A DNA stretch of 41,043 nucleotides, from the IMG/VR virus record IMGVR_UViG_2563366998_000006. One strand, given 5' to 3'. The number at the start of each line of letters is the position of its first letter. Position 1 is the stretch's first letter. The position numbers were made by a program, and so were the translations under genes. A model generated the notes under the pieces. The model saw only the letters and a program-made list of their open reading frames with translations, made no database searches and was not told where the DNA came from. This stretch comes from a virus (Duplodnaviria > Heunggongvirae > Uroviricota > Caudoviricetes). Shown in pieces: positions 38,281 to 41,043 of the stretch.

Positions 38281-39768
38281 TCACTGACAAATGTTTTTGT
38301 CAAAATCAACTACAATAATATCATCATATGAGTATAAGTTATATTCATATGCTCTTTTAATCTTTGCGGTTGAGCAAAAGGTTTTTTCATTTAACACACT
38401 TGCAATGTTTGTATTCCCAGGGTGTTTAAAGTAAACTCCAACTCTATTCATATAAGGGAATGGCCAATCCCAATTATAGAAATACTCTGGGAAAAATCTA
38501 GATATTAACGGGTAATTATTTCGTGCGTTTACAAAAACATCATTGTCTTTCTTTTTACCATTAAAAATAAGTATCTGATTTGTTTTTCCGCTTAACTCGA
38601 AAGCATCATTTTTAATCTGATGAAACAGAACTGTGGTTATGTTTTTTTCTTCTGTCATTGCATTTGTGTATGAACATAAAAAACCAAAAACATAAATCAG
38701 AGGAATTACAAGTATATATGTTATTGAATTTTTTGTTTCTCGCGAGAAAAGATAAACAATCATGAATAAGAACAACATCGTAGCAGAAAAACCGATCATC
38801 ACTCTTGGGGCGTCGATGTGATGCTGAAGTGGTAATAGAGTAGCAAAAGACAATATCAAAGCTGTTACTGGTGATGTTATTGTAATTAAAAAATTAATAA
38901 TACCAGTAATACTTTTATTAGGTATTGATTTCTTTAGCGCGATGAATGTCGTCATTGCAATGAAAAATAAAAATATTACTATAAACGCAACTCGTCCTGA
39001 TTCCCCAAAAATACCACTAGATATTGAATGAAGATAAAATTTTAAGTTTTCATATATAACTGAAAAAATGCCTTCAGTTTTAATTGATGGGTGATCCGGG
39101 TCCCCAACAACAGTTAAAAATAAAGGAATAACCACCAAAAAATATAATGCAACACCTATAACTAATGATACCGTCTTTTCTATGAGGTAAGTTAATAGAT
39201 GTCTGTTACTATCTGAGTTAAAGTACATGTAAACATATTTACACAGAATAATAACCAGCATGAAATTTAATGATGCTTGGTATATAGACAATATAAATAA
39301 TGTTAACAGGGCGGCAAAAGAAATATTTAAAATTGTCTTTTTGAAATTAAATATTACAACTGAGAATGACAATGCAATACTTATGAACATCGGTAAAACA
39401 TCAAAGCGATACATTGCATTTTCAATTAAAAATGGGCTTGATAAAATACCAAGAGGAACCAACAGTCCAATAAATTTATTATCTGTCGATATAAACATCC
39501 TGCTAAAAAAATACAGGCAAACAGATATCAAAAATACTGATAATATTGCAGGAAATGGGAATAAGTCCGTTATGTGCATGTTGAAATTCAATGCAATCAT
39601 CAACATTTCAGCCAAAGGTCTACCATCCCTAGCCCATCCAGTATACCCCCATATAGCTCTTCCCTGATCATCTACATAATGAATATTTGCCATGATGATG
39701 GGGGTGAAATATATAAAAACAGATATCAAGAACCAATGGAAAGGTGTTTTGTTTTTATTTGCAATCAT
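38281..39768 (-). CDS. Serotype-specific O-antigen glucosyltransferase (GtrC-type polytopic membrane protein)
   Basis: 495 aa, many TM segments, strongly AT-rich; positioned after gtrA-gtrB. Confidence 0.7.
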
Positions 39769-40684
39769 TTTTCTGATCCTTTAAAACATATCTTGGGCGC
39801 TGCTTAACTTCAATATAAATACGTCCTATGTACTCTCCAAGTACACCAATACCAATTAGTTGTACGCCGCCAAGAAACAATATTGATACAAGAATTGAAG
39901 GGTATCCAGGTACATTATTACCAAAAATTAATTTATCAATTATCATCCATGAACCGTATGTAAATGATATACATGCAATAAATAACCCAATATAGGTCCA
40001 CATGCGAAGCGGGAATGTTGAGAAGCTAGTGATCCCTTCCAGCGCCAAGTTCCATAGCTTCCATCCATTGAACTTTGTGCTTCCTGCAACGCGTTCTGCT
40101 CGCGCATATTCTACGACATCGGTTCGACCACCAACCCAGCTCAGCACACCCTTCATAAACAGGTTTCGTTCTGGCATGAGCTTAATATTTTCTACTACTT
40201 CGCGAGACATGAGCCGGAAGTCGCCAACATTCTCTTCTATCTGAGGGTTGCTGATTTTGTTATGAAGTTTATAGAACCACTCAGCAGATTTACGCTTCAG
40301 CCTGCTGTCAGTGGAGCGGTCAGAGCGTTTAGCCAGAACCATATCTGCACCGGCCTGCCATTTCTCTATCAAGTGAGGAATAACTTCGATAGGGTCTTGC
40401 AGATCAACGTCAATCGGGATAATTGCCTCCCCGGTAGCATGGTCCAGACCTGCGAACAGGGCGGGTTCTTTGCCGAAGTTACGTGTGAACGACAGCGAAA
40501 CCACAAGCGGGTCGGCAACAGCAAGCTCGTTGATAATTGATTCTGTAGCGTCTTTGCTGCCATCGTTTATGAAGACTATCTCGACTTCATGCTGCTGAAG
40601 CCCTTCAAATTCGCGCACGGTTTTATAAAAAATAGGTATCGTGGCCTCTTCGTTAAAGACCGGAACGACTAAAGAAATTTTCAT
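39755..40684 (-). CDS. gtrB: Bactoprenol glucosyltransferase GtrB
   Basis: 309 aa; [13 protein letters not shown]...FINDGSKD...DVDLQDP family-2 glycosyltransferase motifs and two C-terminal TM helices. Confidence 0.9.
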
Positions 40685-41043
40685 TTCGCATCCCTAAAGA
40701 CAATGAACTTTGAATAGACGAAACCGCACACCAGGCTGATGGCGGAGAAGGTGACAAGAGTTATCATCGGGGGAAGTGCGCATCTATCAGCAGCCCATCC
40801 AACAGTAGCACTCAGTGTTCCCATGAACCCGACATATAACATGTAGCGCATCGTTGTAGTTGATGCTTTGAATGTGAATTTTGCATTCGCGAAGAAGCTA
40901 AAACTCACAGCCACAACGAAACCTGCGAAGTTTGCCAGAGCCTGATTGGTATGCGCGGCATAGATACATACACCAAAAACCACCCAGTGTATAAGTGTGT
41001 TCAGCACACCAATCGAGGTGTACCTTGCAAATATATTTAACAT
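40681..41043 (-). CDS. gtrA: Bactoprenol-glucose flippase GtrA
   Basis: 120 aa with four hydrophobic segments; start codon is the last three bases of the window. Confidence 0.85.

Follow-up and report, generated by a model that had tools for sequence, protein, structure and literature searches.

Which O-antigen does a phage-borne glucosylation cassette modify when its type-specific transferase resembles no typed enzyme? This question is raised by the last three genes, gtrA, gtrB, and gtrC, of a 41,043-nucleotide (nt) stretch of Caudoviricetes DNA (IMG/VR record IMGVR_UViG_2563366998_000006, here called the window, at its full length). A preliminary description, made from the letters and their open reading frames (ORFs), had read these genes as a serotype-conversion cassette whose 495-residue GtrC could not be assigned to a known specificity. 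That remained true of the comparison with typed GtrC proteins, which assigns none, but an O17-type specificity can now be inferred from its identity to GtrC in the O17 reference strain, from the single gtr locus of that strain, and from the one type of backbone found in all carriers. GtrC is likely to be the glucosyltransferase of the O17 side branch in Escherichia coli, the branch that would separate O17 strains, pandemic sequence type 69 included, from O77 and O44.

Among 5426 complete E. coli genomes, 35 contain the gtrC DNA, with an identity that is never below 99.6%. One of the carriers is O17_K12a (hereafter K12a), the O17:H18 reference strain (PMC13248637, PMC13188871), whose GtrC is identical to that of the window over 495/495 residues (WP_000561375.1). 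The K12a chromosome contains a single gtrB-like locus, as judged by blastn searches sensitive down to ~65% identity. Its O-antigen cluster is the one common to O17, O44, O73, O77, and O106; it comprises manB/manC, wzy, wzx, and genes for just two glycosyltransferases, and nothing that would account for a glucose branch was found there. Serogroup O77 corresponds to the bare backbone 6)-aMan-(1-2)-aMan-(1-2)-bMan-(1-3)-aGlcNAc, to which O17 and O44 each add one glucose (Glc) at different positions, while O73 and O106 add two (PMC7685785, PMC10304059). As the K12a protein is identical, its locus is the sole gtr locus, its cluster encodes no enzyme for a glucose branch, and O17 has exactly one Glc, elimination points to GtrC as the O17 branch enzyme. 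Another carrier, MS14387, was typed as O17:H18 of sequence type (ST) 69 (PMC10024524).

The O-antigen clusters of the carriers indicate what the acceptor could be. The wzy/wzx genes of the O77 group, found in 94/5426 genomes overall, were present in 33 of the 35 carriers. The other two carriers (GF66.2 and PSS-11) encode O176 wzy/wzx, a cluster found in only 8/5426 genomes. The O176 unit is 4)-aMan-(1-2)-aMan-(1-2)-bMan-(1-3)-aGalNAc (PMC8244359); it has the trimannose core in common with the O77 backbone and differs in the N-acetylhexosamine (HexNAc) and in the polymerization linkage. All 35 carriers therefore encode an alpha-Man-(1-2)-alpha-Man-(1-2)-beta-Man-(1-3)-HexNAc backbone, and since this is what they share, the acceptor would lie within the trimannose part. 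It should be noted that the annotation of PSS-11 records a frameshift in the O176 wzy, that the wzy-wzx region of GF66.2 is 100% identical to that of PSS-11, and that both are 1 nt shorter than in the other six O176 genomes; these two strains may therefore not polymerize their O-antigen.

This restriction to one backbone also bears on whether GtrC might act on an acceptor other than the O-antigen (e.g., the core, the enterobacterial common antigen, or a capsule) or transfer something other than the glucose made available by GtrB. GtrC proteins are very diverse, the GtrC of Salmonella phage BTP1 affects both the composition and the length of the O-antigen rather than simply adding glucose (PMC4413052), and the lineage of the window GtrC has neither a solved structure nor biochemistry. 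Such an activity is nevertheless highly improbable here, as gtrC is confined to a single backbone type in 35/35 carriers, in phage contexts and at integration sites that are unrelated to each other, as the operon appears translationally coupled to a canonical GtrB, and as gtrC stands beside the tailspike gene in P22-like contexts, the usual arrangement of O-antigen-directed functions.

The second line of evidence is the separation from O44. According to the accounts given in PMC10304059, PMC4732683, and PMC7685785 of the work of Wang et al. (2007), the O44 glucosylation locus (GtrA, GtrB, and "WbbG") lies between ybhB and ybhC. The prophage of strain 042 (O44:H18) shares with that of the window its backbone, the ybhB/ybhC insertion site, an identical GtrA and tail-fiber-assembly protein, and a gtrB that is identical until its last ~120 nt; the host O-antigen gene cluster is also the same. 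The third gene of 042, in contrast, encodes an unrelated 491-residue protein (WP_000038425.1; BLASTP E=1.5). This O44-type gtrC was found in 12 genomes, with zero overlap with the 35 carriers, and the window gtrC was absent from 042 and from the 12 O44-type genomes (the O73, O77, and O106 reference strains lay outside this comparison). Cross-reaction between O17 and O44 has never been seen (PMC4732683). In the literature searched, the O44 locus is the only one identified among the glucosylation genes of the O77 group, the O73 transferases are described as not yet identified, WP_000561375 is not mentioned, and an O17 gtrC is nowhere named or assigned. On balance, we favor the view that the window gtrC is this unnamed O17 determinant, that the enzyme recognizes the trimannose core, and that the group called "O77g" would be split by typing its gtrC alleles (O17-type, O44-type, a third type, or none). 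The third type, annotated as "hypothetical protein", follows a gtrB that is 96.9% identical to that of the window in other O77-group genomes (e.g., 135, HYM1, AST262, EcPF15, and G4/9). Several of these genomes have two gtrB loci and are therefore candidates for the double-branch serogroups O73 and O106.

Several points weigh against an O17 assignment. It is built on identity, exclusivity, and elimination. Most carriers were typed in silico only as "O77g", which cannot be separated among O17, O73, O77, and O106; the firm serological link to O17 comes from K12a alone, the O17 call of MS14387 being itself in silico. Moreover, the 35 carriers are not independent, as many belong to ST69 and several are duplicate assemblies of one strain. 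Antisera against O17 sometimes cross-react with O73, O77, and O106 (PMC4732683), and neither the O17 acceptor sugar nor the linkage of its side branch was found in the literature searched. The window GtrC might also contribute to O73 or O106, with their two Glc branches, and one carrier, 2018-05-2CC, has two gtrB loci. These observations leave room for a functional cassette whose glucose branch alone is not enough to define O17, either because it is common to O17 and O73/O106 or because it acts alongside a determinant encoded elsewhere. The two-branch structures built on the same backbone and the cross-reacting antisera (PMC4732683, PMC10304059), the two gtrB loci of 2018-05-2CC, and in silico typing that cannot split the five serogroups (PMC8767331) all fit with it. 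We consider it unlikely, as the defining strain K12a has one gtr locus only within the sensitivity given above and no spare glycosyltransferase in its O-antigen cluster, and as O17 has just one Glc branch (PMC10304059); a gene common to O73 and O106 would, in any case, still fit the role of O17 branch enzyme.

The assignment to O17 presupposes that the cassette is an intact Gtr system, and the gene families, the gene order, the predicted fold, and the genomic position all agree with this reading (Table 1). Three adjacent, co-oriented genes encode a small membrane protein, a family 2 glycosyltransferase (GT2), and a polytopic transferase; the Pfam matches of all three products lie above the curated gathering cut-offs, and PHROG annotates them as GtrA-, GtrB-, and GtrC-like O-antigen conversion proteins. 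The claim that the cassette is complete was borne out: the three ORFs are present with zero internal stops, the ATG of gtrA being the final triplet of the window, and the Prokaryotic Genome Annotation Pipeline (PGAP) annotates three matching intact coding sequences in 35 complete genomes. Since gtrA and gtrB overlap by 4 nt and gtrB and gtrC by 14 nt, the genes would form a single translationally coupled operon. GtrB has two predicted C-terminal transmembrane (TM) segments, and GtrA is the proposed flippase of undecaprenyl-phosphate-glucose. A 76-residue ORF at 38060-38290 (minus strand) was treated as spurious, as it has no family match and overlaps both the 3' end of gtrC and a hairpin.

Comparison with typed systems gave the pattern expected of GtrABC, in which gtrA and gtrB are conserved while gtrC is type-specific and divergent. 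GtrA is 100% identical to that of O44 strain 042, 95% to that of phage HF4s, and 86-87% to those of SfII and SfV; the K12a gtrA gene is 97.5% identical. GtrB identities range overall from 84 to 100%: 100% with K12a (O17), 97.4% with O44 strain 042, and ~85% with SfII and SfV. The sugar would be glucose, because GtrB and the bactoprenol glucosyltransferases of Shigella are ~85% identical. The comparison with typed GtrC proteins that had been suggested gave nothing significant with GtrI, GtrII, GtrIV, GtrV, HF4s GtrC, or O44 GtrC (blastp, phmmer), and therefore no specificity can be transferred from these enzymes. The closest typed homolog in the phage collection is the GtrC of Salmonella phage P22 (with ST64T, ST104, and other P22-like phages), which aligns over 87% of the length (E ~6e-25) and belongs, like GtrC, to phrog_4829; the identity, however, is only ~26%, and the O-antigen backbones of the hosts differ.

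The GtrC family is large and divergent. A word-indexed protein search returned 7 GtrC clusters only, and an exhaustive search was needed to reveal the family, which comprises 1215 clusters at E<=1e-3. Outside E. coli, even the closest relatives, from Enterobacter roggenkampii and E. asburiae, share only 40% identity, and the next ones 36% and 33%. From an alignment of 81 sequences, AlphaFold produced a model with a mean predicted local distance difference test score (pLDDT) of 95.6 and a predicted template modeling score (pTM) of 0.94. Hydropathy and the model both place ~10 TM helices before a C-terminal alpha/beta domain of ~130 residues, and GtrC is confidently predicted to be a GT-C-fold enzyme. 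Residues D33, D34, P71, and Q164 are invariant among 81 homologs and all are kept in GtrC; near-invariant positions include R37, W45, G49-R50-P51, D68, D123, and Y163. The D33-D34 pair opens the first periplasmic loop, immediately after TM1, which is the place of the catalytic acidic residues in GT-C enzymes. GtrC is thus a polytopic protein with the predicted GT-C fold and acidic residues in the first periplasmic loop, as are the glycosyltransferases of PF14264. Disabling mutations, which would have spoken against the reading of the preliminary description, were looked for and none was seen: the ORF is intact, none of the invariant residues is missing, and the model has very high confidence.

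The position of D33-D34 after TM1 and, by inference, a polyprenyl-phosphate-linked sugar donor are features shared with the GT-C enzymes of solved structure (AftA, AftB, PMT, ALG3/9/12, STT3/PglB/AglB, and ArnT). GtrC differs from them in its smaller size, its own C-terminal domain, a sequence identity of only 8-12%, and its predicted acceptor, a polymerized or undecaprenyl-pyrophosphate-linked O-unit rather than protein, lipid A, or arabinogalactan. A family-profile search of the PDB gave no real match to any chain, so the family has no solved structure detectable by sequence.

Following the Shigella/Salmonella Gtr model summarized in PMC7685785, GtrB would transfer glucose from UDP-glucose onto undecaprenyl phosphate at the cytoplasmic face of the membrane, GtrA would flip the product to the periplasmic face, and GtrC, as a GT-C enzyme using this polyprenyl-phosphate-sugar donor, would place the glucose on one defined sugar of the O-unit. 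In this case, a single glucose side branch would convert the linear O77 backbone into O17, and the acceptor would be in the trimannose part common to the O77-group and O176 units. The O-antigen of the lysogen would be altered, and the modification may shield it from O-antigen-dependent phages (superinfection exclusion). Taken together, we consider it probable that gtrABC form a functional operon for O-antigen glucosylation, a lysogenic-conversion cargo borne near attR by an SfIV/SfII/SfV-like myovirus prophage, with GtrC adding the O17 glucose branch.

A further point against this reading is that a scan of the 450 nt preceding gtrA revealed no consensus sigma-70 promoter, and consensus scans for promoters and terminators around the operon gave nothing above chance. 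The cassette could then be intact but silent or cryptic in its host, with no or very low transcription and an O-antigen that is effectively unmodified; some Salmonella gtr operons change the lipopolysaccharide only when expressed from a constitutive promoter (PMC3688519). This is very unlikely, as SfII, SfV, and HF4s, phages described as serotype-converting (PMC3636060), share the conserved ~125-nt leader that precedes gtrA, as GtrC is evidently conserved (no more than 4 residues differ among its copies in four prophage contexts and two genera), and as K12a expresses the O17 antigen with a window-type cassette as its only gtr locus.

The leader is conserved in all contexts of the cassette. The 449 nt upstream of gtrA contain one GATC, at -58, as is the case for the O44 locus and SfII. 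The Dam/OxyR phase-variation signature of Salmonella requires four GATC sites (PMC3688519); this signature, a feature of the P22 gtr operon, is missing from the window cassette. A phase-variable operon of the Salmonella type is not supported on this count, and gtr expression would not vary in the Dam/OxyR manner. A stem-loop (GCAAAGC...TTGCA) is also conserved upstream of gtrA in all contexts examined (L001 12144-12165, ~100-120 nt past the window end). Its SfII equivalent is annotated as a putative rho-independent terminator. The stem-loop travels with the cassette and probably insulates gtr from transcription coming from the int side.

The preliminary description had called the whole cassette sharply AT-rich. 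This holds for gtrC (30.8% GC) and for the 3' end of gtrB (its last ~120 nt) but not for the rest of gtrB (43.9% for the gene) or for gtrA (45.5%); the adjacent tail-fiber gene has 56.6% GC and the remaining prophage 51%. The low-GC block (26-36% inside, ~31% overall, versus 46-62% outside) spans ~1.7 kb. Identity to the O44 prophage of 042 is lost ~110 nt downstream of gtrC (~38169) and within the last ~120 nt of gtrB (~39878), so that the alignment breakpoints bracket the low-GC block exactly. The comparison shows a gtrC-bearing 1.7-kb module that, judged from composition and breakpoints, has been exchanged horizontally. The hairpin that directly follows the gtrC stop (Table 1) is within the swapped module and missing from the O44 version; the RNA fold of the stretch around it was predicted at -33 kcal/mol.

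As to the element that carries the cassette, the prophage sits between ybhC and ybhB, in the lambda attachment site. The window is E. coli DNA, its 3-kb cassette region being 100% identical to many complete genomes of the species. Beyond gtrA, those genomes have ~345 nt in which a P arm like that of lambda and the att core of lambda, TTAGTATAAAAAAGC, are found, and then ybhB-bioA. The attR that was said to adjoin the cassette, unseen in the window, is accordingly found where expected. The matching core at the left end lies next to a lambda-type integrase gene, accompanied by an excisionase gene, which agrees with the proposal that the cassette is beside attP-int in the circular phage: gtrA and the integrase gene would be neighbors across attP. 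The prophage is thus bounded by lambda att cores, with gtrA ~345 nt from attR, as expected of a GtrABC system in a temperate phage.

The structural genes are ~97% identical to those of the SfIV, SfII, SfI, and SfV myoviruses (over up to 82% of the region compared), up to the tail-fiber gene. The cassettes of Shigella flexneri phages SfI, SfII, SfIV, and SfV also have the same gene order and overlaps, the same place between the tail-fiber genes and attP-int, an AT-rich type-specific gene, and the conserved ~125-nt gtrA leader with a single GATC or none. They differ in the type-specific protein, for which pairwise blastp of GtrC with GtrI, GtrII, GtrIV, and GtrV detected no similarity (E >= 0.9), in the lambda-type integrase and att at ybhC/ybhB in place of the annotated Sf int/attP module, and in the acceptor backbone, which is a mannan-type O77/O176 unit and not the S. 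flexneri O-unit. The element is thus best described as an SfV-like converting phage carrying a lambda integration module.

The cassette was found in four contexts (Table 1), with GtrC differing by at most 4 residues. These 4 differences are those of the GF66.2 and PSS-11 proteins. The argW site used in K12a is the site of the CPS-53 remnant of strain K-12. Judging from these arrangements, the cassette has been combined with different integration modules. The exact GtrC protein was found on at least 1000 contigs, and a protein identical at 493/495 residues (P0181; accessions EKR1729962.1 and HAE6912352.1) is encoded in an assembly of Salmonella enterica subsp. enterica, which would be expected to belong to serogroup H (O:6,14). 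An O77 backbone has been reported for S. enterica O:6,14 (PMC4732683), and the Salmonella copy may represent an inter-genus spread of the cassette that tracks the acceptor structure.

Table 1. Coordinates of the cassette, its module, the prophage ends, and the contexts in which the cassette was found (window positions unless a locus is given)
Feature	Position	Strand	Description
gtrA	40681-41043	minus	120 aa, small membrane protein; PF04138 GtrA/DPMS, E=2e-13; phrog_2224, E=3e-69
gtrB	39755-40684	minus	309 aa, GT2 bactoprenol glucosyltransferase; PF00535, E=3e-30; phrog_841, E=3e-166
gtrC	38281-39768	minus	495 aa, WP_000561375.1; PF14264 Glucos_trans_II, E=1e-26; full-length phrog_4829 "GtrC-like", E=2e-73
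Low-GC exchangeable module	38169-39878		~1.7 kb; last ~40 codons of gtrB, whole gtrC, and ~110 nt downstream
Hairpin	38243-38275	minus	Perfect 10-bp stem directly after the gtrC stop; candidate operon terminator, without U-tract
ybhC	1-1284		Adjoins the attL core
attL core	1331-1345	plus	Lambda att core GCTTTTTTATACTAA; sole exact match in the window, 0.01 expected by chance
Lambda-type integrase	1419-2489	minus	PF00589, E=3e-40; lambda Arm-DNA-binding domain PF09003, E=7e-33
attR core	L001 12388-12402		~345 nt past the window end; matches the 15-nt attL core
Context 1	window		SfV-like phage at att-lambda
Context 2	L002 6927-8832 (K12a)		Related myovirus prophage at tRNA-Arg (argW), IntS integrase, beside yfdC
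Context 3	L007 5192-9763 (GF66.2); L014 5189-9763 (PSS-11)		Podovirus prophages of the P22 type, with the cassette immediately after the tailspike gene
Context 4	2018-05-2CC		Remnant flanked by insertion sequences, beside ibsA/yegL

Other features of the prophage were observed. The likeness to the Sf phages stops within the tail-fiber gene, near 36943. An inverted remnant of a tail-fiber-assembly gene, annotated by PGAP at 37951-38076 (minus strand), lies just downstream of the intact copy (37575-37979) and could be the leftover of an invertible or exchanged tail-fiber segment. In the early region, two co-oriented cargo ORFs at 13612-15542 (minus strand) may form an accessory or defense module: one product, of 404 residues, has no Pfam match and belongs to phrog_5023, of unknown function, and the other, of 237 residues, is similar to the C-terminal portion of 37-kD nucleoid-associated proteins (PF04245). 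An inserted gene for a 338-residue DDE transposase (PF01609 and DUF772) at 15980-16996 (minus strand) may affect the inducibility of the prophage.

The mechanism proposed here is already known, being that of a standard Gtr system on a well-known type of serotype-converting phage, and the value of the finding is practical rather than conceptual; what this analysis adds is a likely O17-type specificity, apparently unpublished. As O17, O44, O73, O77, and O106 have one O-antigen gene cluster, genome serotyping tools leave the group unresolved (PMC8767331, PMC13188871). This group includes the pandemic uropathogenic ST69 and an emerging outbreak clone of Shiga toxin-producing E. coli, O77g:H18. A sequence marker for the O17 branch would allow genomes to be assigned to O17 in silico, splitting "O77g", and would be relevant to O-antigen-based vaccines and diagnostics. 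An O17 GtrC would also supply a defined enzyme-acceptor pair for studies of how GT-C enzymes choose the sugar that receives the side branch. If true, recognition of the trimannose core would explain why the cassette has moved among phages of three or more types and among four or more integration sites, as well as its presence in O176 E. coli and in Salmonella enterica, wherever the backbone occurs.

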